IMG/VR virus record: IMGVR_UViG_3300030060_004050
Location: 1-64,000 of that record
DNA length: 64,000 nt
From: a virus
Direction: 5' to 3' (one strand)
In this document: in pieces, positions 1,015 to 17,241 of the stretch
Numbering within the stretch: position 1 is the stretch's first letter
How the letters are laid out: every line of letters begins with the position of its first letter
Notes under the pieces: generated by a model
Told to the model about the DNA's origin: nothing
The model's database searches: none
The model's input: only the letters and a program-made list of their open reading frames with translations
Position numbers and translations under genes: made by a program

Positions 1015-2265
1015 TCAGAAGGGGCACTCCGTGTCCGTGATAGTGGCAACCCCGTCCGCGTCTTCCAGCGACTCGGAGTCATTCATGTTGGCTTCTGCAT
1101 CCACCTTCCCGTAGAGGGAGAGGAATGCTTCCTTAGTGTCATCGTCGAACCGAGCAAGGCACATGGCAAGCGCCTTCTCCTTCTCACCGAAGATCTTCCA
1201 GGCGTTGACGATATCCACCAGACGGCGAGTCGAGATGATCTCGTCAACCGCACCCTCATAGAAGGACTTGCGGATGATCTCGCTCCACTGGGTCAGGTGG
1301 TCAGCGAAGGACTTATCGTCGCATCCCGCCTTGGCGAGAATCTTACGCTCGGTAGCCTTGGTGGGATAGGGCTGCTCAAGGGTCACCGGGAAGCGGTCGA
1401 GCATGGCTTCGTTCATGATACCAGTCCCGACGAATCGTCCGTCATCCGAACCCTTACCCTTGGTGTTGGCAGTGGCGAACACCGTGAAACCGGGAGCAGG
1501 AACAACCCACTCACCAGTCTTCTTGATGAACACACCCTTACCTTCCAGCACGGGCTGGAGACACATGAGGTTGGCAGAACCAAGGTCGATCTCGTCGAGG
1601 AGAAGAACACCACCGGACTTCATCGCGTTGACGACGGGTCCGTAGACAAACTTGGTCTCACCGTTCATGAGACGGAAACCACCGATCAGGTCATCCTCAT
1701 CGGTCTGCTTCGTAATGTTGACGCGGTAGCATTCACGCTTCTGCTTGGCGCAAACCTGCTCCACCATGAGGGTCTTACCGTTACCGGAGAGTCCGGTGAC
1801 GAAGATCGGGTAGAACTGGCGCGACTTGACGATCTTCTCGACATCAGTGAAGTGTCCCCAAGCAACGTAACCATCGAAGCGAGGCGGGACGAGAGTGGCT
1901 CGTTCACCACCAGTCATTCCCATAGTCATCGCAGCGATGGTCGAAGTAGCGGCGGTCTCAACCGCACCCTGAACCGGCGCACTGGAACACTGATCGTTGG
2001 TCGTATTGCCTACAGTGTTCGCAACCGGAGCAGGGGCGGGAGACGCAGCAGCACCCGAACCGGCGACCTCAGCCAGTTCGGGGCAATCGTAGAGTCCACG
2101 CCCGACTTTGCGGGTCGAGTCTTGAGTGAGCCAGGACGGAGGGCAAGCGTAAGCACCGGAGGCCTCGCAGGCCTCGACGAGTTCCTGGCGGGAGACGGGA
2201 GAAGTCGCACCCATATCGGCGAGGGCGCGGAGAAGATCAATTTGTCGTGGTTTGAGGTTGTTCAT
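1015..2265 (-). CDS. cobS: CobS-like / MoxR-family AAA+ ATPase
   Basis: Walker A GLSGNGKT, Walker B LLLDEID, ATANTKG and LDRF motifs. Start placed at ATG 2265 after the TAAGGA RBS (the ORF track begins at an upstream TTG). Confidence 0.88.
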   Translation of the reverse strand: MNNLKPRQIDLLRALADMGATSPVSRQELVEACEASGAYACPPSWLTQDSTRKVGRGLYDCPELAEVAGSGAAASPAPAPVANTVGNTTNDQCSSAPVQGAVETAATSTIAAMTMGMTGGERATLVPPRFDGYVAWGHFTDVEKIVKSRQFYPIFVTGLSGNGKTLMVEQVCAKQKRECYRVNITKQTDEDDLIGGFRLMNGETKFVYGPVVNAMKSGGVLLLDEIDLGSANLMCLQPVLEGKGVFIKKTGEWVVPAPGFTVFATANTKGKGSDDGRFVGTGIMNEAMLDRFPVTLEQPYPTKATERKILAKAGCDDKSFADHLTQWSEIIRKSFYEGAVDEIISTRRLVDIVNAWKIFGEKEKALAMCLARFDDDTKEAFLSLYGKVDAEANMNDSESLEDADGVATITDTECPF

Positions 2266-2323
2266 GGTCAAAATTCCTTATCGGACAGAGGAGGTCATGT
2301 CTCGGAATCGTCCCGAGAACATG

Positions 2324-2367
2324 TTAATTATACCACATGGCCGCCCCGGCGCAAGTACTTGTACCCA
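2324..2367 (-). promoter_or_regulatory. Early-type promoter for the cobS-like gene (TTGCGC-N16-TATAAT, extended -10)
   Basis: 44-bp element, 33/44 identical to the divergent element at 2611-2654. Confidence 0.7.
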
Positions 2368-2480
2368 TTTTTCGGTGTTTTTCTTGAGAAAACTGACAGA
2401 TCCTGTCAGTTTACGCCTAAATCCAGATATTATAGGGACTTACAAAAACCCCTCTGGCAGGGCGAAAACGGGGGTTTTAT

Positions 2481-2500
2481 CTGTCCACAAGTTATCCACA
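2481..2500 (+). promoter_or_regulatory. DnaA box (TTATCCACA) with an adjacent degenerate box
   Basis: Perfect TTATCCACA at 2492-2500 and CTGTCCACA at 2481-2489, in a 240-bp non-coding gap. Confidence 0.5.
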
Positions 2501-2610
2501 ATTACCCTAACAGCACCCTAACCGTGATAGTACGTCCGATAACCCCTATAGGGGACGTAAGTCCGGTAATGGCAGGGGTTTAAAAAAAGATGCAAAAAAA
2601 CCCCTAAAAA

Positions 2611-2654
2611 TGGACACAAGCACTTGCATGGGGGCCGATATATGGTACAATTAA
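2611..2654 (+). promoter_or_regulatory. Early-type promoter for the cobT-like gene (TTGCAT-N16-TACAAT, extended -10)
   Basis: TTGCAT at 2624-2629, TGG-TACAAT at 2643-2651; twin of the element at 2324-2367. Confidence 0.7.
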
Positions 2655-2658
2655 GTAT

Positions 2659-4998
2659 ATGAGTCACCGAAAAACCACTACCGTTTCAACGTCCAATAAG
2701 TCCTCTAAGGATATCCTTGCCCGTGCGATGGCGCAGGAGGATATCTTCGTCGAGCATTCCGCCCAGGCGGAAACTGCTGCCTTCGACGTTGCGAATCGTC
2801 GCCTGATTCTTCCCGTGTGGAAGGACATGGATGACGCCCTTTACGATATGCTCGTCGGGCACGAAGTCTCTCACGCCCTGCATACTCCTGCTACTGGTTG
2901 GCAGGAGTTTGTTGGTAATGGACCTCAGTCCGGTGTGCGTCACATGTTCGTCAACGTTGTCGAAGACGCCCGTATCGAACGAATGATCAAGGCGAAGTTC
3001 CCCGGACTTCGACGCGACTTCTCGTCCGCTTACGCTTCGCTTCACGAACGTGACCTCTTCCAGATTACTGGTAAGGATCTCACCGATCTCCCGCTGATCG
3101 ACCGACTCAATCTTCACTTCAAGATTGGTTTGTTCGGACTTGAAACTATCACGTTCGCCGCTGACGAGAAGCAGTACGTCACTCGCATGGAAAACACCAC
3201 GACCTTCGAAGAGGTTGTCGAACTTGCTCAGGAACTCTACGACCTGTGGAAGGAAGACCAGCCAGAAGCAGAAGAGGAGAACGGTGACGAAAACGAAAGC
3301 GTCGAGTCTCCCGAAGGTGGTGAGGGTGAAGGACCCTCGAGCGAGTCCGGCGAACAAGAGCAGGACGGACCTCAGGGTAACGGTGCCACTGGTGGTGAGT
3401 CCGATGAGGGAGAAGAAGAAGGCGAGACCGGTGAGGGTGGTTCCGGTGAGGGTGACGGAGAAGAGTCCGAAGGTGACGGTGAGTCCGGTTCGCCTTCCGG
3501 TGGTGAAGACTCCGGTGAATCGATGGAAGACGATACCGACGATGGTTCGTCCGCCGAAGGTGAGGAGTCAACCGCTGACGGGACTGGTTCGCAGTCCGGA
3601 CGATACGACGACTACCAGAACGGTGTTTCCCAGCCCGGTGCCACTCAGGCTGCCATGGAGCAGGGAGTGAACGATCTCCGCGACGAGTACGCGAGAGACT
3701 ATGCCTACTTCGATCTTCCGACTCCCGATCTCAACAACATCGTCATCACTCCGAAGCAGATTGCTGCCGAGTTCGAAACCATTTCCGATTCGGTTTGGAA
3801 CCGCGAAGATCAGGTTAAGGCACGACAGGATGTCGATGCTCAACTCAAGACCTACCGAAACTCGATCAAGGGTACGGTTGCTCAGATGGTTCAGCAGTTC
3901 CAGATGAAGCAAGCCGCTGACGCCAGCAAGCGAACCGAAGTCGCCAAGACTGGTGTTCTCGATCCCGTCTCCATGATCAACTATCGCTGGAGTGAGGACA
4001 TCTTCCTCAAGAACGAGACTCACGCCGCTGGTAAGAACCACGGTATGATCATCTACCTTGACTGGAGCGGTTCGATGGTGGACATCTTCGACGATACCAT
4101 GGACCAGTTGCTGGTGCTGGTGGAGTTCTGCCGCAAGGTTAACATCCCGTTCGAAGTCTTCGCTTTCTCCTCGCAGGAAGCAGCGTCCTTCGCTGGTGTT
4201 GATCGTTACGACTGGGAAGCCCAGAAGAAGTGGGGCGAAGAAAACCCCAGTTGGAACGGTGGTGAAGATATGCGGATTCACGGTTTCTGCCTTCTGAATC
4301 TTCTCTCTTCCACCATGAAGAAGCGAGACTTTGAGTCTGCACTGACCAACCTTTGGTATCTCCGATCCTACAACGGACCTGGACGATACAACGGGAACTA
4401 CGCGGTGACTTGTCCCGGAACCCTTTCGCTGGGTTCGACTCCTCTGAACGAATCGGTTCTCTGCGCCATGAAGCAGGTTCCCGCCTTCAAGAACGCCAAC
4501 GGTGTGCAGATCGTCAACTGTGTGTTCCTGACTGACGGTGACGGTTCTTCGATCCTCCCCTATTGCAGTGCCACTACCGTCCTGCGAGATCCCAAGACTC
4601 GTAAGACTGCTACCATCGACCGAGGACGACGAGAAACCGACAACCTGATCGGAATGCTGCGGGAGTCCACTGGTGCGAACTGCATCGGTATCCGTCTCCA
4701 CAACGCCAAGAACGTGAACAACATGGTTCGGTATGCTGACGGAATCACCATGGAGCAAGCCGAGATGATGAACAAGAATTACAAGACTCAGAACTTCTGC
4801 GTCTGGCCGGACACCAACTACAACGAGTCCTTCATCATCAAGGGTAACACCGAAGTCCAGACGGATGCGATGGACAACCTCGACGGAGACGCCAGCATGA
4901 CCAAGATCAAGAATGCGTTCATGAAGGGTGGTAAGTCCAAGAAGAGCAGTCGAGTGATTGCCAACCGAATGGTGGACATCTTCTCAGTCGCATCATGA
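2659..4998 (+). CDS. CobT-like protein: N-terminal zincin (HExxH) domain, acidic linker, C-terminal VWA/MIDAS domain
   Basis: HEVSH and VNVVEDARIER in the N-terminal domain, a long E/G/S/D-rich linker, MIDAS motifs DWSGS and FLTDG; adjacent to a MoxR-type ATPase. Confidence 0.8.
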   Translation: MSHRKTTTVSTSNKSSKDILARAMAQEDIFVEHSAQAETAAFDVANRRLILPVWKDMDDALYDMLVGHEVSHALHTPATGWQEFVGNGPQSGVRHMFVNVVEDARIERMIKAKFPGLRRDFSSAYASLHERDLFQITGKDLTDLPLIDRLNLHFKIGLFGLETITFAADEKQYVTRMENTTTFEEVVELAQELYDLWKEDQPEAEEENGDENESVESPEGGEGEGPSSESGEQEQDGPQGNGATGGESDEGEEEGETGEGGSGEGDGEESEGDGESGSPSGGEDSGESMEDDTDDGSSAEGEESTADGTGSQSGRYDDYQNGVSQPGATQAAMEQGVNDLRDEYARDYAYFDLPTPDLNNIVITPKQIAAEFETISDSVWNREDQVKARQDVDAQLKTYRNSIKGTVAQMVQQFQMKQAADASKRTEVAKTGVLDPVSMINYRWSEDIFLKNETHAAGKNHGMIIYLDWSGSMVDIFDDTMDQLLVLVEFCRKVNIPFEVFAFSSQEAASFAGVDRYDWEAQKKWGEENPSWNGGEDMRIHGFCLLNLLSSTMKKRDFESALTNLWYLRSYNGPGRYNGNYAVTCPGTLSLGSTPLNESVLCAMKQVPAFKNANGVQIVNCVFLTDGDGSSILPYCSATTVLRDPKTRKTATIDRGRRETDNLIGMLRESTGANCIGIRLHNAKNVNNMVRYADGITMEQAEMMNKNYKTQNFCVWPDTNYNESFIIKGNTEVQTDAMDNLDGDASMTKIKNAFMKGGKSKKSSRVIANRMVDIFSVAS

Positions 4999-5037
4999 CT
5001 CTCACAGGATAGAGTCCAATGGATTCTCCTGTTTAAC

Positions 5038-5079
5038 GTCCCCCGTACTTAGTGACTCAGGTGCGGGGGACATCTTTTT
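5038..5079 (+). terminator. Rho-independent terminator
   Basis: GTCCCCCGTAC/GTGCGGGGGAC stem followed by a T tract, after the cobT-like stop. Confidence 0.7.
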
Positions 5080-5125
5080 ACTATCACGCCGGCGTATATG
5101 CACCTATATAGTATAGGAGTACGTT

Positions 5126-5413
5126 ATGCCACGACAGAAGAAACAATCGGTAGACTACAGTGTAGTAAAGGTAGAATGGTTGGATGCTGAAGAGAATGGT
5201 GATGTGGGGTGGAATGATCTGAAGAAACAGTTGGCACACGCCAAGAAACCATGTCCGCTTATGAAGAGTGTTGGGTTCTTAGTGTTCGAGGGTGAAGAAC
5301 ACATTGCGATACTCAGCACGATTGGTCCAGACGAGGCGAGTACGCTTGAGAAGATCCCGAAGAGTTTCATCAAGTCTATTACCCATCTAGTACCCCAAAC
5401 TAAGGCAAAGTAA
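5126..5413 (+). CDS. Hypothetical phage protein (V.V.W.DA ... SVGFL ... IP family)
   Basis: AGGAG RBS; 95 aa; motif pattern typical of small phage proteins. Confidence 0.7.
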   Translation: MPRQKKQSVDYSVVKVEWLDAEENGDVGWNDLKKQLAHAKKPCPLMKSVGFLVFEGEEHIAILSTIGPDEASTLEKIPKSFIKSITHLVPQTKAK

Positions 5414-5459
5414 TGCGCCTTATGCCTCGACAAACCTATTAAAATAATATTAAATTAAT

Positions 5460-5491
5460 TAAAAACCCTCCTGGCACTACGCCAAGAGGGT
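5460..5491 (-). terminator. Terminator downstream of the Flp pilin
   Basis: ACCCTC-TGGC...GCCA-GAGGGT stem; the A run at 5460-5465 gives a U tail on the minus strand. Confidence 0.55.
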
Positions 5492-5514
5492 CTCTATTTT
5501 CGTGTTATGTGGGT

Positions 5515-5712
5515 TTACCCGCCTCCACCTACGCTACCATCAGAGGCAACATTAAGTGCTTCAGTCATCTCTTGAAACTTTGCGGTCTGCCCGTCACGCA
5601 CTGCCTTAACAGCACCGATTGAACCCGCACCCATTACAGTACCAAGGATCATATACTCTGCGACTTGCATACCCTCTTCGTCTCGTAAAAACTTCTTAAT
5701 TGCTTCAAACAT
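5515..5712 (-). CDS. flp: Flp/Fap (type IVb/Tad) prepilin
   Basis: 65 aa; leader KFLRDEEG, then G|MQVAEY with E+5/Y+6, followed by a hydrophobic helix. GAAAGGA RBS, with CATAAATA upstream at 5748-5755. Confidence 0.8.
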   Translation of the reverse strand: MFEAIKKFLRDEEGMQVAEYMILGTVMGAGSIGAVKAVRDGQTAKFQEMTEALNVASDGSVGGGG

Positions 5713-10920: not shown

Positions 10921-11223
10921 ATGCCAATTTATGAATATGAATGTGAGTCGTGTGAGCATGTATTTGAAGTGATGCTTGGAATGAATGATCGTGATAAACC
11001 TCTTGAAGATCCTTGTCCTGAGTGTTCCGAAAAAAGTGTGCGAAGATCGGTTGGTATGTTTCAAGCCGGAGCAGATTCTACCATGACGGTGGATAAGATG
11101 TGTCCCGGATTCTCTAAGAGAATGGATCATATCAAAAAAGGTGCGATGATCAATGAATCCGCAAGGAAGAACATTGATCGGGCACAAAACTTTAGTCCCC
11201 ATGGATACCTGAAACCAAGTTAA
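10921..11223 (+). CDS. FmdB-family zinc-ribbon protein
   Basis: MPIYEYECESC...CPECS with two CxxC pairs. Confidence 0.85.
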   Translation: MPIYEYECESCEHVFEVMLGMNDRDKPLEDPCPECSEKSVRRSVGMFQAGADSTMTVDKMCPGFSKRMDHIKKGAMINESARKNIDRAQNFSPHGYLKPS

Positions 11224-11325
11224 TGGATAATGACTTTTTCATTTTACTTTTATTGACATGTGTAATGCTCCTTGATATATGGTCACCGGAGGACAAAGAA
11301 TAGATAGGTAAGCAAGGAGACTTAC

Positions 11326-12558
11326 ATGGCACTAGAATTTTCAGAGATTGCGACTCTTGGATGCCTATTCTACAGTGAAAGAGAATTGAAAAAAGCAGCG
11401 AGTGACGTAGGGACACTCGCTAAGTTTACTGCTACTGTTCGAGATAAAGTAAACAAAGATCGATTCGTCAAGTTCGGAACAGGAAAAGCAGAGTTCATTC
11501 GTGCCATGGATCCCACAAATAAAGTGGTTCTTGATGATATGTGTAGAGGTATCTCTGCTGCACTTGCAATCAAGAAGTGGATGACTCAGCACCACAACGA
11601 ACCAACAGACACAAAAATTAAAGCCGGATACATGACTGGTAATGTCTGGCCTTCTCCCGTCGATGCATTTAAAATCGATGCGTTTGGTATGGCAGACTAC
11701 AACTCCTCGGACTTCATTCTATACACCGGGAGACAGGGAACCAACGAATACTACTATGGCATTTCTCTCAAGAAGAAAAATGTAGAACATGCTGCCGATC
11801 CCACCCTAATTAATAAGGCATTTGATTCTGTCATGGACGGTAGAGAATTTGACAAGATCAAAGATGACATCAAGACACTGAGAGTCTCTTGGTTTGCGAA
11901 CAAAGTACGAGAGGCGAGTAAGCAAGGACTAATCCAAATAGAATCCGCACACGAAAAACTACCAGATGAAAAACTTATACTTTCAAGTCCTGCTGGAACC
12001 AAAAAATCATACCCTAATATCAAAGGTTTGTTGAAGGAAGGGTATGAGTCTGGTAATGGGTTTAGAACGTGGATGAACCGACAGGTTGGTAGGGGAGATC
12101 TCTATAGTTCTATGATGAAAATTATTGAACCTCACATGGAGATGTTTGCAAACTCCTTGATTAACTTAGTTCTCAAGGTAAATCTAAACGACAAACTAAA
12201 CGCAAACAAAGATCTTAACAAGTACTATTTTGGATTTGCACTAGCAACTGGGGTAGGACAGATGAAAAAGGACGTTCCTTTCGTTGGTACGGGATCTGTG
12301 TACCCACAGGAGAGTGTCTTGTGTGCTTTGAGTCATCTTGCAAGTTCTAAGAAACCATTCAAGATGGTTCAGGTTCCAAACCCCGCCGGCGATGAATCAG
12401 ACGCAGCAAAGGTGTTCTTTGAAATTCGCAAGGGTAATGTTGCTATTTTAGATCTGCAAGTTCGCTATAAAGGTTCTTTCACTGCACAACCTCAGTTCCA
12501 GGCATTCCTCACCAAAGACTTTAAGAGAATTATCGCTGGCGAATGCGTTAATCCTTGA
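11326..12558 (+). CDS. Putative PD-(D/E)xK / restriction-endonuclease-like protein
   Basis: SSDFIL...YGISLKKK resembles a D...SxK nuclease core; AAGGAG RBS; TTGACA at 11253. The function is an inference. Confidence 0.4.
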   Translation: MALEFSEIATLGCLFYSERELKKAASDVGTLAKFTATVRDKVNKDRFVKFGTGKAEFIRAMDPTNKVVLDDMCRGISAALAIKKWMTQHHNEPTDTKIKAGYMTGNVWPSPVDAFKIDAFGMADYNSSDFILYTGRQGTNEYYYGISLKKKNVEHAADPTLINKAFDSVMDGREFDKIKDDIKTLRVSWFANKVREASKQGLIQIESAHEKLPDEKLILSSPAGTKKSYPNIKGLLKEGYESGNGFRTWMNRQVGRGDLYSSMMKIIEPHMEMFANSLINLVLKVNLNDKLNANKDLNKYYFGFALATGVGQMKKDVPFVGTGSVYPQESVLCALSHLASSKKPFKMVQVPNPAGDESDAAKVFFEIRKGNVAILDLQVRYKGSFTAQPQFQAFLTKDFKRIIAGECVNP

Positions 12559-12567
12559 TATATAAAA

Positions 12568-12780
12568 GACAACCTCCCGCCTGTGACTCTGAGCGGGAGG
12601 TCGTCTACTATGATGACGGTCGTAAGGTAGCGAAATTCCTTGGTGTAGATTAAAACACAGAATAATCTACACCGTGCATGGATGGCGCAACGTTCTGGAA
12701 CACTGTCGCCAAGTTGCCCGGCCGCCTGATTTTGTATAATTGAAAAAACGACGGCACCACTTAAGGCGTCGTCGTTTTTT
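12568..12780 (+). ncRNA. Putative structured RNA mimicking 23S rRNA helices 69-71
   Basis: 12616-12642 matches the universal 23S segment ACGGTCCTAAGGTAGCGAAATTCCTTG at 26/27 positions, with H69-like and H71-like hairpins. It is bounded by TATATAAA (12559-12566) and a terminator. Confidence 0.6.
12743..12780. terminator. Bidirectional terminator
   Basis: AAAAAACGACGGC...GTCGTCGTTTTTT. Confidence 0.8.
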
Positions 12781-12846
12781 CGAGTTAAAGTATTGGTTTC
12801 TTTTACTCACTGTTATATGTATAAAACCACAGTAAAAAGAGAACAC

Positions 12847-12871
12847 AAAAAACCCCTCTTACGAGGGGTTT
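12847..12871 (-). terminator. Terminator for ORF 12901-13944
   Basis: AAACCCCTC-TTAC-GAGGGGTTT, with the A run giving a U tail on the minus strand. Confidence 0.8.
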
Positions 12872-12900
12872 CTTGTTTAAATTTAAAATTATTTTTCGGA

Positions 12901-13944
12901 TCAACCTGGTCCTCCGGGACCACCGGGACCACCACCACCGCCGGGAGGATCACCACCACCAGTGTCATCGCCTCCGGGAGGATCACCACCACCAGTGTCA
13001 TCACCACCATCATCAACATCATCCCCTGGCGGTTCCTCGGGAGGATCACTTGGCGGAACTGGAGGTCCACCTGATTCGGTGTTTTGGTGTTCGTTATTCT
13101 CCAACCAATCCAAAAGTTCTGCACCCAACCAGATTGCACCTGCAACGGCAGCAGCGATGAGTACAGCCTGGAACCAAGCGGGTTGCCTGTCCCACCAACC
13201 CGCAAGTCCGCCTTCTGGTGCGTTCCAATCAGAGGGTTCGTCTGGCACCCATGCTCCATCGTCATACACACCATCACCGTCAGGATCTGCTACCCATTGA
13301 CCGTTAGCGAGTCTACGGACAACGTATGGTACTCCGAGGTATTGAGGTGGATTTCCGGGAAGAAATTCAATGTAAAGTCCACCACCATGAGCGATGTGTG
13401 CAGGCATACCGTTTCCAGCAGGAACGCTGAACAGTGGAATACCCATGTCATCGAACATTAAAAATTGCCAGTTACCGGGAATTGGTTGAACTTGACCGTT
13501 CATATAAATGTACTGTTGTGCGATTGCACCGTCAGGACCGATGACTCGGTAGATCTTAATAAGATTACCACCGATTTCAATTTCTACTAGGTTTACCTGA
13601 TAACCTGCTGGTAGTGGGTAAAGTCCGTTTGCAGTGAACCAATCGATCAACCACTGTGGTAGAACTTGAACGGGAACACCCTCTGAGTCTTGTGTACCAT
13701 TGTCATCAACAATAACACCACCACTCTCTACTGGTCTAATTGTAAGATTTGGCTTTGATGGTCTTTTACCCATAATAGGACCTGGTGGGACATTGGGTGC
13801 AAGTTTAAGGCCCTGGTCGCCACCTGCTTGCTCAAACATAGTACCATAATACATCCACCTCATCGGGGAAGGTGATGAAAGTACTTTCTCTAGTGCATCT
13901 TCAAACTGTTCTTGAAGCATTCGTTTAAATGAATAGTCGCTCAT
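12901..13944 (-). CDS. Putative head-internal protein with a single transmembrane helix
   Basis: Leader MSDYSFKRMLQE|Q; contains DPDGDGVYD; hydrophobic segment WFQAVLIAAAVAGAIWLGAELL; acidic Gly/Pro tail; TATACATA upstream. Confidence 0.6.
   Translation of the reverse strand: MSDYSFKRMLQEQFEDALEKVLSSPSPMRWMYYGTMFEQAGGDQGLKLAPNVPPGPIMGKRPSKPNLTIRPVESGGVIVDDNGTQDSEGVPVQVLPQWLIDWFTANGLYPLPAGYQVNLVEIEIGGNLIKIYRVIGPDGAIAQQYIYMNGQVQPIPGNWQFLMFDDMGIPLFSVPAGNGMPAHIAHGGGLYIEFLPGNPPQYLGVPYVVRRLANGQWVADPDGDGVYDDGAWVPDEPSDWNAPEGGLAGWWDRQPAWFQAVLIAAAVAGAIWLGAELLDWLENNEHQNTESGGPPVPPSDPPEEPPGDDVDDGGDDTGGGDPPGGDDTGGGDPPGGGGGPGGPGGPG
12941..13002. repeat. 29-bp tandem coding repeat (33-bp period, GGDDTGGGDPP)
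   Basis: CCGGGAGGATCACCACCACCAGTGTCATC at 12941 and 12974. Confidence 0.85.
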
Positions 13945-14074
13945 GTATTTTTCTCCATACTCGGTAGGATTACCTATTGATTGTACATTATGTATAAGAC
14001 TATTTTCTTCAACGAACCAAACTCAACTCTGTTATACATAATCATGAAGAACTTTCCAAGACTAGGAGAATACA

Positions 14075-14344
14075 ATGGCAGGAAAAGACGTTTACAAAGT
14101 AGCACAGGGGATTCCTTCGTCAGCAGGACCTACTGGGGATACTACCATATATGGTGTTGCAATATACAACGGTCATGCATCGGGGACAGGTTCGATTGGT
14201 GTTCAAACGGTGAACGGACAAAATATTCAATTTAAAAATGTTCCGGCTGGATCAATACTTCCTGTTCATCACTCTAAAGTCTACGGTGTAACTGCCGATG
14301 CAGCATTGAGAACCACAGCGACTAACATTATCTCTCTACTTTGA
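14075..14344 (+). CDS. Small virion protein resembling the head-spike base family (RcGTA Rcc01079-like)
   Basis: The C-terminal pattern FKNVPAGSILPV..KV...TTATNIISL is recalled from that family; late motif upstream. Confidence 0.5.
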   Translation: MAGKDVYKVAQGIPSSAGPTGDTTIYGVAIYNGHASGTGSIGVQTVNGQNIQFKNVPAGSILPVHHSKVYGVTADAALRTTATNIISLL

Positions 14345-14352
14345 GGATTTAA

Positions 14353-14862
14353 ATGAAAGATTATAGAACATTTCTATCCGAACAAGTAGAACTTAATGAA
14401 AAGGCAAAAAATACATTGTCTACATTAGCAGGTTCTCTTGGTGGACAAGCAGACAAAGCAAACACCATTGCAAGCACCAGAGGAGTCACTGTTAAAATTG
14501 ATCCCTCTGATGTCTCTATGATAAAAGCAATATCAGATAGAACTGTTTATAACTTTGATGCTCTTTTGAGTGGGTTCGAAGCACTTTCTTCATACACAAT
14601 ACGTCCAGAGGAGAAGGCAAACTACAAAAGAACCCTGTCTCAACTAAGAGATGAAGATCCTAGAAAAGTAAAGATACTTCAAGAGTTAGAAAATATAATG
14701 GTTCTTCCTGCAAGTGCGGACAGAACATATAGAACACAGAGTGTTCTTGACACACTAAACAACATTGCAACTGAGATGGGACAGGGAAGTTTGTCCTATG
14801 ATCAGGTGCAACCACAAACATACATACCAGGCAGGTATATGAATTTCGGTAGGGGCAACTGA
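14353..14862 (+). CDS. Putative head-internal protein
   Basis: Leader MKDYRTFLSE|Q closely resembles the T4 capsid-targeting sequence. Confidence 0.6.
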   Translation: MKDYRTFLSEQVELNEKAKNTLSTLAGSLGGQADKANTIASTRGVTVKIDPSDVSMIKAISDRTVYNFDALLSGFEALSSYTIRPEEKANYKRTLSQLRDEDPRKVKILQELENIMVLPASADRTYRTQSVLDTLNNIATEMGQGSLSYDQVQPQTYIPGRYMNFGRGN

Positions 14863-16502
14863 TGAAACTTAGTAAAAGAGATTTTAAATCGTTTAATAAG
14901 GAGGAGCAAGAACTTCTCTCAATGGTTGCTACTATGACAACTGGTGGATCCCCGGTTGTGGAACCTAAAAATTTACATCTCATGACAAAACAAGGGATGA
15001 AAGAAACCCTTGACATGATGAAAAAGGAACAGAAAAATATGTCATCAAAGGGTAAAAAGTTAGTGCAGTCAATTCTCAAAAAAGCCAAACCTCTAGCAGA
15101 GCAGGTTCAGTTTAGTCAGTACGGTAGGAAACGTCCTGACGAAGAAGAGATTCGTAAGATCGCACAGATGACACTGAACAATGCAAAGAGAAACATGGAG
15201 AAACTGGCTCCTGAAATGAAGGGTATGATGAAACCCGGAGCCGTTCGTCCACTTGAGACTGGTCAGCCTGGTGCTGTAAGTGCTGATCTTGGGTTTGATG
15301 ATCTTGCAGGGATGGTAAGAAAACCATCTCTACCTCCACCACCATCTACTGGATCACCAGTGATGCCTGGTATGGAACAGAAACCACCTATGCCTCCAGC
15401 ACCAACAATGGACGATCAACCCGCACTTCCACCTAAACCCAGACAAGCACCCCCACCTCCCGGTGGTATGCCTGGAATGCCTCCAATGCCTGGTATGGGT
15501 GGTCCTCAACCTTCTGAAACCGAAGGACCAAGAGCAATGGAACCTGCAAAGGACTTTGCTCAGAGGATGGGAATCAAAGATGTCGAAAGACACCATCTTC
15601 GTCCAGAAGAGGACGATGCTCCTGTAGACATGGCTCCAGAAACCGCAGATGCTCCCGGACCAGGAATGCCCCCTGCTGGTATGATGGCTCCACAAGCAGG
15701 TCCACAACAAGGACAACCAGTTCCTCCACAACTAGCACAAGATCCTGCTGCACCCAAGGAGATGCCTCGACAACTTCCTCCCGGAACAACCGAAGCATCA
15801 CAAGAGTTTATTGACAAGTATGCAGGTCAAATCAAGTCTTTCCTAAAGAACATTGCAAGGGAAGAAGAGGAAAAGTTTGCTAGGGCCAGAGATCTCACTG
15901 CTATGCCAAAAGCACCTATGAAAGAACAAGCAGTCAACGCAGTCGGTAGTGGTATGTCTCCTGTTGTCGGTGGAGAGGGTGAGATCAAAGGACGAGACAA
16001 GATGCTTGGTGGTAAGACTGCTGGAATGCGTCGGCGCAAAATGATGGAAAATCATACATATAGAACAAACCTTCAAGGAGAAGATGACATGAATCTAAAC
16101 GAACAACTACAACAAGCATATGAAGCCGGAAAACAGTCTGCTTTGAATGAGCAGATGTCAGGCGGTGGCGTAGGTCCTATCTTTACACCCGGACAAAGAC
16201 CAACTAGTCCTTCCCTCCAACCCAACTACGTTCCTCCCGCAGCAAATCCAAACTATAACCCAGGCCAACCCGGACATGTTCCCGGTGCAAAACCAAGAAA
16301 GCCTGGGACGGGTGGATTCCGGATTCCCGCTAGATTTGATAAGAATGGTGATGGAAAGATTGATGCTAAAGAAAGAAGAGCATATATTGAATATATGAGG
16401 CAAATGTACAAAAGATATCTTGAATATAGGCGAACCACCAATGACAATCCTCCGATGCCTTTCAATCAATATTTCAACCAACAAGGATCAAGTCAACTAT
16501 AA
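14862..16502 (+). CDS. Pro/Met-rich multi-module putative head polyprotein (contains a gp23-like segment, a second leader and an EF-hand-like loop)
   Basis: Several xxE|Q sites; EQAVNAVGSGMSPVVGGEGEIKGRD; internal AAGGAG RBS with ATG at 16089; DKNGDGKIDAKE. Confidence 0.65.
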   Translation: MKLSKRDFKSFNKEEQELLSMVATMTTGGSPVVEPKNLHLMTKQGMKETLDMMKKEQKNMSSKGKKLVQSILKKAKPLAEQVQFSQYGRKRPDEEEIRKIAQMTLNNAKRNMEKLAPEMKGMMKPGAVRPLETGQPGAVSADLGFDDLAGMVRKPSLPPPPSTGSPVMPGMEQKPPMPPAPTMDDQPALPPKPRQAPPPPGGMPGMPPMPGMGGPQPSETEGPRAMEPAKDFAQRMGIKDVERHHLRPEEDDAPVDMAPETADAPGPGMPPAGMMAPQAGPQQGQPVPPQLAQDPAAPKEMPRQLPPGTTEASQEFIDKYAGQIKSFLKNIAREEEEKFARARDLTAMPKAPMKEQAVNAVGSGMSPVVGGEGEIKGRDKMLGGKTAGMRRRKMMENHTYRTNLQGEDDMNLNEQLQQAYEAGKQSALNEQMSGGGVGPIFTPGQRPTSPSLQPNYVPPAANPNYNPGQPGHVPGAKPRKPGTGGFRIPARFDKNGDGKIDAKERRAYIEYMRQMYKRYLEYRRTTNDNPPMPFNQYFNQQGSSQL

Positions 16503-16563: not shown

Positions 16564-17241
16564 ATGGACTTGAAGAAATTTAAACATGTTGTCCTTGAAG
16601 AGGCGTTCAAGGATCTAAACACAGTAAATCAGAACGGACAGCGTTTCTACTCCACACCGGAGGGACACTATCCGTCTGTCACCACCGTAACTGGCTGGGA
16701 GAAGCGAAAGTTTTTCGCTAAATGGAGAGCAGAGAATCCCAAGGAATCTAGGCGAGTCCTTGATCGAGGGAACAAACTACACAGTCTCATCGAAGAGTAT
16801 ATCGACAACTGCTTCGACGACAAGACTCTTGGTGGATTGAATCCGTTCATTCTAGATCTCTTTATCAATCTGAAACCAGAGTTAGACAAGATTGACAACG
16901 TGTACGCACAAGAGGTTCCGTTATGGTCTTCCACACTAGAACTAGCAGGGCGAGTAGATTGTGTTGCTGAGTATGATGGTAAATTATCCATTATCGACTT
17001 CAAGGGTTCTACCAAGAAGAAGAGAAAAGAGGATATCCTCAACTACTTCATGCAAGCAACTGCATATTCTATTATGTGGCAAGAGATGACAGGAAAGAAG
17101 ATTGATAATATTGTAATCTTGATTGCAACAGAGACTGGTGAAACCCAAGTCTTCCAAGACAATCCTTTACGATATGTAAAAGCACTTCTCAACTGCATTC
17201 GAAACTACCAAGAAGAAATACTAGTCAATAACGAGATCTAG
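16564..17241 (+). CDS. Exonuclease, PD-(D/E)xK / Cas4-like (cyanophage ExoA type)
   Basis: Motifs YPSVTTV, RGNKLH, QEVPL, LAGRVDC, IIDFK, YFMQATAY. Confidence 0.85.
   Translation: MDLKKFKHVVLEEAFKDLNTVNQNGQRFYSTPEGHYPSVTTVTGWEKRKFFAKWRAENPKESRRVLDRGNKLHSLIEEYIDNCFDDKTLGGLNPFILDLFINLKPELDKIDNVYAQEVPLWSSTLELAGRVDCVAEYDGKLSIIDFKGSTKKKRKEDILNYFMQATAYSIMWQEMTGKKIDNIVILIATETGETQVFQDNPLRYVKALLNCIRNYQEEILVNNEI

Follow-up and report, generated by a model that had tools for sequence, protein, structure and literature searches.

The region 12568-12780 of the window, a 64,000-nucleotide stretch that comprises positions 1-64,000 of IMG/VR virus record IMGVR_UViG_3300030060_004050, holds a phage element that, on comparative sequence evidence, is non-coding, conserved and structured and stems from helices 69-71 of 23S rRNA. 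The 23S gene around these helices is present here as an inverted and remodelled copy, so that a transcript of the - strand would be complementary to the rRNA. The best reading of the element, to which we assign a probability of about 0.45, is that it specifies a - strand small RNA of approximately 170-185 nt predicted to pair with helix 69-70 of the host 23S rRNA. A relation to helices 69-71 had been proposed in a first-pass annotation made from the sequence alone, and it is upheld here by the homologues and the covariation that were found.

In a local alignment against Salmonella 23S rRNA (locus L001), 28 out of 30 bases were identical over 12613-12642, a segment that contains the 26/27 match recorded earlier at 12616-12642 and that includes an unbroken run of 20 identical bases at 12623-12642 (the core). 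We take these segments to correspond to E. coli positions of about 1916-1945 and, for the core, about 1926-1945. Weaker rRNA-like stretches extend past the core to ~12710, and a gapped alignment tracked the rRNA loosely to ~12745. Among them, the second rRNA-like stretch, previously noticed at 12674-12707, was confirmed by alignment at 12674-12710 (presumably about 1964-2000 in E. coli). According to the Rfam structure line of true rRNA, the matched parts are the helix 69 (H69) loop and 3' strand, the irregular helix/loop 70 and helix 71, followed by the 3' strands of helices 67, 64, and 61. Position 12622 is a G where the rRNA has a C, a change common to families A-C (see below) that in family A breaks the local rRNA pair C1925-G1929 (E. 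coli numbering). A 19-mer carrying this G had a single match, in a non-rRNA context, among 185,579 reference genomes, indicating that it is not a variant of host rRNA. Nor is the element an ordinary rRNA gene fragment, given that the Infernal search suggested in the first-pass annotation, run with the LSU model (RF02541, Rfam) on window positions 11000-15000, gave no match at E <= 1; a true 23S segment scores 385 bits under the same model. With all 4227 models of Rfam 15, including the 23S-methyl motif, the element was left unmatched under E-value as well as gathering cut-offs, and only chance-level matches on the neighbouring terminators were obtained.

Exact-word scans detected a 22-mer around the core in four other IMG/VR contigs and a 19-mer of the core region in 19 metagenome contigs, of marine and freshwater origin. 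The window's type of element, family A, recurs in over 20 independent contigs from phages or metagenomes, which rules out a chimeric assembly with host rDNA, an artefact considered at the outset. Family A comprises 12 distinct sequences, of which L012 and L019 lack the hairpin that takes the place of helix 71 (P3). A scan with a 17-base core matched 32 viral contigs; two of these were true rRNA, and the remaining ~30 fall on at least 12 unrelated scaffold types, grouped by eye, which have little in common beyond the core and, partly, the second rRNA-like stretch. These matches are not chance words, since all of them extend the rRNA identity past the 17 bases. Altogether, more than 45 contigs, representing at least 12 scaffolds, carry the core without any change, its flanks being remodelled with compensatory changes. 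The linker at 12606-12622 is conserved between families A and B, and the linker, core and second stretch that they have in common make family B homologous to family A; P3 is absent from families B and C, as it is from L012 and L019. Rfam models applied to 15 loci of the other scaffold families recognised tRNA and tmRNA only, leaving the element uncovered. Among the cultured phages of INPHARED, a single copy was found, that of family F in Roseobacter phage CRP-7, all other matches being host rRNA contamination; no cultured relative of families B, C or E was detected in this collection. The one exception was a short partial match to the family-D flank (51 nt, 82% identity) in Streptococcus phage Javan240.

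The elements occupy recurrent genomic positions. They lie beside tRNA genes in families B, C, and L, within the tRNA arrays of two jumbo phages in family K, and next to a phage tmRNA in family E. In families C, E, and L the element is placed after, not before, the tRNA or tmRNA genes, and in family B the tRNA array follows it on the antisense strand. On that strand, a gene starts 70-83 nt past the core's complement in five families, encoding the large terminase (terL) in family F, the tail tube in G, the prohead protease in I and proteins of unknown function in family E and in the L004 type of family A, where the U-tail is degenerate and is followed by a ribosome-binding site (RBS) and a start codon; in family D, terL starts 232 nt past the core's complement.

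Several features of these loci were recorded in their own right. In CRP-7 (L058, MK613349.1 54261-54486), the large terminase is annotated to start ~100 nt inside the family-F element, and an RBS with an ATG ~20 nt past the element hairpin looks like the true start. Family D (L009 3380-3760, L045, and L056) comes from prophage-like contigs; about four copies of a 23-nt hairpin motif lie between element and terL, and an 11-base stretch ~100 nt from the core is identical to the 3' end of 16S rRNA and thus gives, when read antisense, a perfect extended Shine-Dalgarno sequence. The 222-kb jumbo-phage contig L050 carries at 1049-5638 an array of 26 tRNAs, two of them with anticodon UUA (reading the UAA stop), a possible sign that a stop codon is reassigned or suppressed in this phage. 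Phage tmRNA genes were found within a few hundred bases of elements in L030 (7440-7767, permuted type), L038, and L055, and a few kilobases from the rRNA-derived element in L052 (6539-6864).

The record itself spans 118.5 kb, is an estimated 66% complete and carries T4-type baseplate wedge, tail, portal, large terminase and scaffold genes; the virus is a marine T4-like phage. The element sits between the convergent ORFs 11326-12558 (+) and 12901-13944 (-), and so do three terminator-like hairpins, namely P1 and T2, described below, and the one at 12845-12876. Only the latter was picked up by a simple terminator scan, P1 and T2 being missed because of a 12-nt loop and a mismatch, respectively. 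The upstream ORF (410 aa) belongs to phrog_3060, of unknown function, has no Pfam family, and adjoins the element in only four family-A contigs; it is therefore not an obligate partner, and no protein partner common to the element loci was found across families. Past the element on the - strand, no gene lies ahead in the window, the next gene being convergent. Neither a tRNA gene nor a second copy of the element was found in the 118.5-kb record, and a tRNA linkage in the window's own genome was discarded for lack of such a gene.

As regards the other neighbours, the 347-aa product of 12901-13944 (-) has a Gly/Pro/Asp-rich low-complexity C-terminal tail, belongs to no Pfam or PHROG family, and adjoins the element in eight family-A contigs at 29-42% identity; a search for distant relatives through this neighbour, whose alignment was too variable as a query, found none. 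An ORF of the PD-(D/E)XK nuclease family (PF12705, E 2e-8) lies ~4 kb from the element, at 16564-17241 (+). The block 12782-12876, between T2 and the strong bidirectional terminator 12845-12876, is kept in 10/11 family-A contigs; on its + strand a second late-promoter-like box at ~12812-12826 could yield a + strand RNA of ~50 nt ending at 12871-12880, and alternatively the block could be part of a - strand unit ending at T2.

Read on the - strand, the RNA would start at roughly 12730-12742 and run down to hairpin P1 (12605-12568), with a U-tail to ~12560. P1 has 13 bp and a 12-nt loop, folds at -27.6 kcal/mol on the - strand versus -23.6 on the + strand, and is interpreted as ending the - strand RNA by intrinsic termination, because a U-rich tail (12559-12567) follows it; at least five U in 8 nt come after P1 on this strand in eight of the nine family-A sequences tested. 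Read on the + strand, the same positions hold TATATAAA (12559-12566), immediately past the stop codon of the 410-aa ORF, a late-promoter-like box that resembles the T4 late consensus, is exact in L020, and precedes the element by a constant distance throughout family A. At the opposite end, hairpin T2 (12743-12780), preceded by an A-run and followed by a T-run, is bidirectional by sequence, is conserved in sequence in all family-A members, and abuts the element in L012, L020, and L026. Both flanking signals had been pointed out before, and both are present as described.

Between these limits, the linker (12606-12622) is single-stranded, and its - strand is complementary to the 23S H69 loop (12607-12611, five bases) and to the H69 3' strand (12616-12621, six bases). 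The - strand of the core provides 20 bases perfectly complementary to 23S rRNA and adopts, in the minimum-energy fold, a 4-bp stem (12624-12627/12638-12641) with a 10-nt loop (12628-12637). For this loop, the predicted probability of being unpaired is 0.7-0.9 in families A, B, E, and K, and in D in only one of three members (L056). P3 (12642-12651/12664-12673) is a 10-bp hairpin, of unrelated sequence, in the place of helix 71. The second rRNA-like stretch (12674-12710) contains a further hairpin, P4 (12684-12710), which on the - strand gains two G.U pairs in the window's own sequence. Finally, the long-range helix P2 (12615-12622/12719-12726) closes the rRNA-like domain, enclosing the core, P3, the second stretch and P4.

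The same architecture, consisting of P1, a single-stranded stretch, P2 and T2, was predicted by RNAfold in 12/12 family-A members. A covariance model was built and the family realigned to it; in RNAalifold on the plain MAFFT alignment, the hairpins had been misaligned. In the covariance alignment, one of the checks proposed in the first-pass annotation, 87% of cells pair, compared with 35-50% when the partner columns are slid, and 14 out of 35 pairs change on both sides, including six in P1 and six of the nine in P3. The covariation and the pairing on this alignment indicate that the element is a real, selected RNA structure, and they also substantiate the earlier observation of a different hairpin where helix 71 should be. 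In P2, 88.5% of cells pair and the changes are one-sided only (G.U/G-C, U-A/U.G). The H69-like hairpin proposed at 12599-12605/12615-12621 stood in part: it can pair in 90.5% of cells across the 12 relatives, and two U-to-C changes improve it. Nevertheless, it shows no covariation, its 3' arm being invariant, and it is missing from the minimum-energy fold of every family member; it competes with P1 and P2. Taken as a whole, the element region folds at -88 kcal/mol on the + strand (z -6.4) and at -92.7 kcal/mol on the - strand (z -7.3).

Most of this structural evidence cannot separate the two strands, as the helices on them are mirror images. The assignment of the strand rests on the fact that a G.U pair on one strand reads as A.C on the other, and on the terminators. 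Counted on the + strand, P1 shows 145 Watson-Crick, 0 G.U and 11 A.C cells (the latter in four columns) and P3 76, 0 and 6 (in three columns). Each of them reads as a - strand helix, since the 17 A.C cells, in seven columns and with no G.U, leave the helices intact only on the - strand; P3 is, besides, ~5 kcal/mol more stable on the - strand in five of the seven relatives scored. T2, with 159 Watson-Crick, 14 G.U and 1 A.C cells, appears from this pattern to be selected as a + strand terminator, and these G.U pairs imply that + strand transcripts probably cross the element. The counts of P2 (74, 11 and 10) are uninformative on strand.

Comparison across families was also used in the choice of strand. 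An antisense hairpin with a U-rich tail lies 11-27 nt past the core's complement (42 nt in family H) in 9/12 families, and for 22 of the 30 distinct sequences the antisense version of this hairpin is the more stable one. In families B, E, and F, the antisense fold is better than the sense fold by 8-18 kcal/mol; family B, with a margin of 7-17 kcal/mol in the comparison of its members, reaches -55 to -61 kcal/mol antisense versus -42 to -53 sense, with 7-9 versus 1-4 G.U pairs, and the family-F hairpin has on the antisense strand about 21 G.U versus 4 A.C cells. All genes neighbouring the CRP-7 element are on the antisense strand, and so are the neighbouring tRNA or tmRNA genes of families B, C, E, and L. 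The sense strand gives the better fold in families D, H, I, and L and a slightly better one in K, whose surrounding tRNA array is on the rRNA-sense strand; within family A, the overall fold is better on the + strand in L006, L012, and L019. A conserved -10-like box, read by eye, precedes the antisense 5' end by 7-8 nt in family B, and no convincing - strand promoter was found in family A. On balance, these sequence-based signs suggest that the functional strand in the window is probably the - strand. The + strand, chosen in the first-pass annotation, was probably the wrong one in view of the A.C-only defects of P1 and P3, the - strand terminators and the antisense folds of families B, E, and F.

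The element shows several of the features expected of an antisense RNA, with 20 bases of contiguous complementarity, a seed that is accessible by prediction and a 3' intrinsic terminator, and its 10-nt loop and the single-stranded linker that follows complement universally conserved rRNA bases. The RNA would dock on the host 23S rRNA at helix/loop 70 and at the loop of helix 69, by loop-loop pairing and by pairing of its linker. The helix 69 loop is exposed on the free 50S subunit and forms bridge B2a. Helix/loop 70 is single-stranded and open to cleavage by MazF-mt6 in the free 50S subunit, though not in the 70S ribosome (PMC5408214, review), and a point mutation in it abolishes subunit association (PMC5408214). 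The putative docking site would be the free 50S subunit or a late pre-50S particle, where the target is exposed, and not the 70S ribosome; in mature ribosomes most target bases are engaged in tertiary contacts, and pairing may consequently be limited to immature particles. As a result, large subunits might be held back from subunit joining or final maturation in late infection. The target is universal and lies at the subunit interface, beside bridge B2a, where a single mutation blocks subunit association (PMC5408214), so an RNA that binds it could switch off the 50S subunit or stop its maturation.

A different product has to be weighed, namely a late + strand RNA, running from the box at 12559-12566 to T2, that would mimic 23S helices 69-71 as a decoy for a protein recognising this rRNA site, for instance a toxin such as a MazF-type nuclease, a modification enzyme, RRF or HflX. 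This product, close to the mechanism originally proposed, is considered less likely than the - strand small RNA. The fixed T4-late-like box of family A, exact in L020, the selection of T2 on the + strand, the pairing of the H69-like hairpin and its improvement by two U-to-C changes, and the sense-strand tRNA array of the jumbo-phage family K all speak for it, together with P2, which is perfect on the + strand in L012 and L019. Mimicry of a host RNA by a phage RNA also has a precedent in pseudo-ToxI of phage phiTE. However, a + strand decoy accounts neither for the A.C defects that P1 and P3 show only on that strand nor for the antisense terminators, and the sister families are clearly antisense. 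The idea of mimicry is itself weakened, since the rRNA helices are not kept by sense-strand compensation: the H69-like hairpin neither covaries nor appears in any minimum-energy fold, the C1925-G1929 pair is lost, and helix 71 has given way to another hairpin or is missing. Furthermore, the UUCCU site of MazF-mt6 is lost across families, as the base after the core varies, and a decoy for this particular nuclease was rejected on the grounds that the site is not conserved beyond the core. Should the + strand be the functional one instead, this would be the first rRNA decoy of a phage, a finding no less novel.

The arrangement of genes raises the alternative that the - strand sequence acts in cis, as a leader or intergenic element (an attenuator or a processing/stability signal) ahead of late genes or tRNA arrays. 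The antisense gene starts at 70-83 nt in five families and the family-D terL at 232 nt fit such a role, as do the tRNA array that follows in family B and the L004 type, in which a degenerate U-tail leads to an RBS and start codon. We regard it as improbable, however, because no gene follows on the window's own - strand, where the next gene is convergent, because an alternative antiterminator pairing was not found, and because families C, E, and L have the element behind their tRNA or tmRNA genes. It is far harder to accept that the element is a decaying piece of captured host rDNA, devoid of RNA function, between the terminators of convergent genes. The three terminator-like hairpins between the convergent ORFs are compatible with such a relic, which would nevertheless hardly retain an unchanged core across more than 45 contigs of at least 12 scaffold types amid compensatory changes in the flanks, or a fixed terminator spacing, or recur in tRNA islands and ahead of late genes. 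Two further roles were dismissed on specific findings: an rRNA-repair splint for an RNA ligase, as no PF09414 ligase was found in the 118-kb record, and a box C/D guide, as the C-/D-like letters (12609-12615 and 12727-12730) occur only in the window and are not conserved in its relatives.

The small RNA that would pair with helix 69-70 may be part of a broader phenomenon. We put forward, with more reservation, the possibility that many phage lineages have repeatedly made anti-23S helix 69-70 small RNAs from inverted 23S copies, which would grip the host 50S subunit or its precursor; the lineages tentatively included are marine T4-like phages, freshwater phages, a roseophage, jumbo phages and Firmicutes prophages. 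If this is true, it would amount to RNA-based control of the host ribosome, on a par with the adjoining tRNA and tmRNA genes, and the antisense reading may explain conserved non-coding stretches in phage tRNA islands and ahead of late genes. Naturally occurring anti-ribosomal RNAs that suit a very broad range of hosts would then form a class of their own, for which the presence of the same target in E. coli would offer a simple test system. In agreement with the first-pass annotation, which knew of no such phage RNA, no description of a phage RNA that mimics or pairs with 23S rRNA was found in the literature or in Rfam. To our knowledge, phages influence translation by means of proteins, tRNAs, tmRNAs and a small number of ribosomal proteins, and an RNA whose action consists in pairing with rRNA is not known to us from bacteria or phages.

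Different aspects of the element can nonetheless be related to known systems. Like the rRNA mimics in mRNA leaders, such as those of ribosomal-protein autoregulation and the 23S-methyl motif (RF01065), it places rRNA-like sequence in a non-rRNA transcript, and these leaders would match a + strand mimic or decoy; they are, however, read on the sense strand ahead of the gene for the binding protein, whereas the element leans towards antisense and has no such gene nearby. The box C/D and H/ACA guides of archaea and eukaryotes are also small RNAs with 10-21 nt complementary to conserved rRNA sites, but the C/D-like letters of the element are not conserved, and the protein partners of guide RNAs are, as far as we know, not found in bacteria or their phages. 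Ribosome-associated ncRNAs, known from Haloferax and yeast as fragments of tRNAs or mRNAs bound to ribosomal subunits, provide a parallel in that a ribosomal subunit is the proposed direct target of a small RNA, although they are processing products with no long complementarity to rRNA, and the element would be a dedicated phage gene. Trans-acting base-pairing sRNAs, among which are some derived from 3'-UTRs and tRNA trailers such as 3'ETS-leuZ, resemble it in being small, with an accessible conserved seed and a rho-independent terminator, and some of the families described here likewise lie at the 3' end of a tRNA operon. Their known targets are mRNAs and sRNAs rather than rRNA, whereas the seed of the element, of 17-20 nt, is universal among bacteria. 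Finally, the loop-presenting antisense RNAs of plasmids and phages, including CopA/CopT of R1, RNA I/RNA II of ColE1, and Sok/hok, combine a short perfect complement in a hairpin loop, a single strand into which pairing can extend and an intrinsic terminator, just as the predicted - strand RNA does. Their target, nevertheless, is an mRNA or primer of the same locus, whereas the partner of the element would be the host 23S rRNA, encoded elsewhere.
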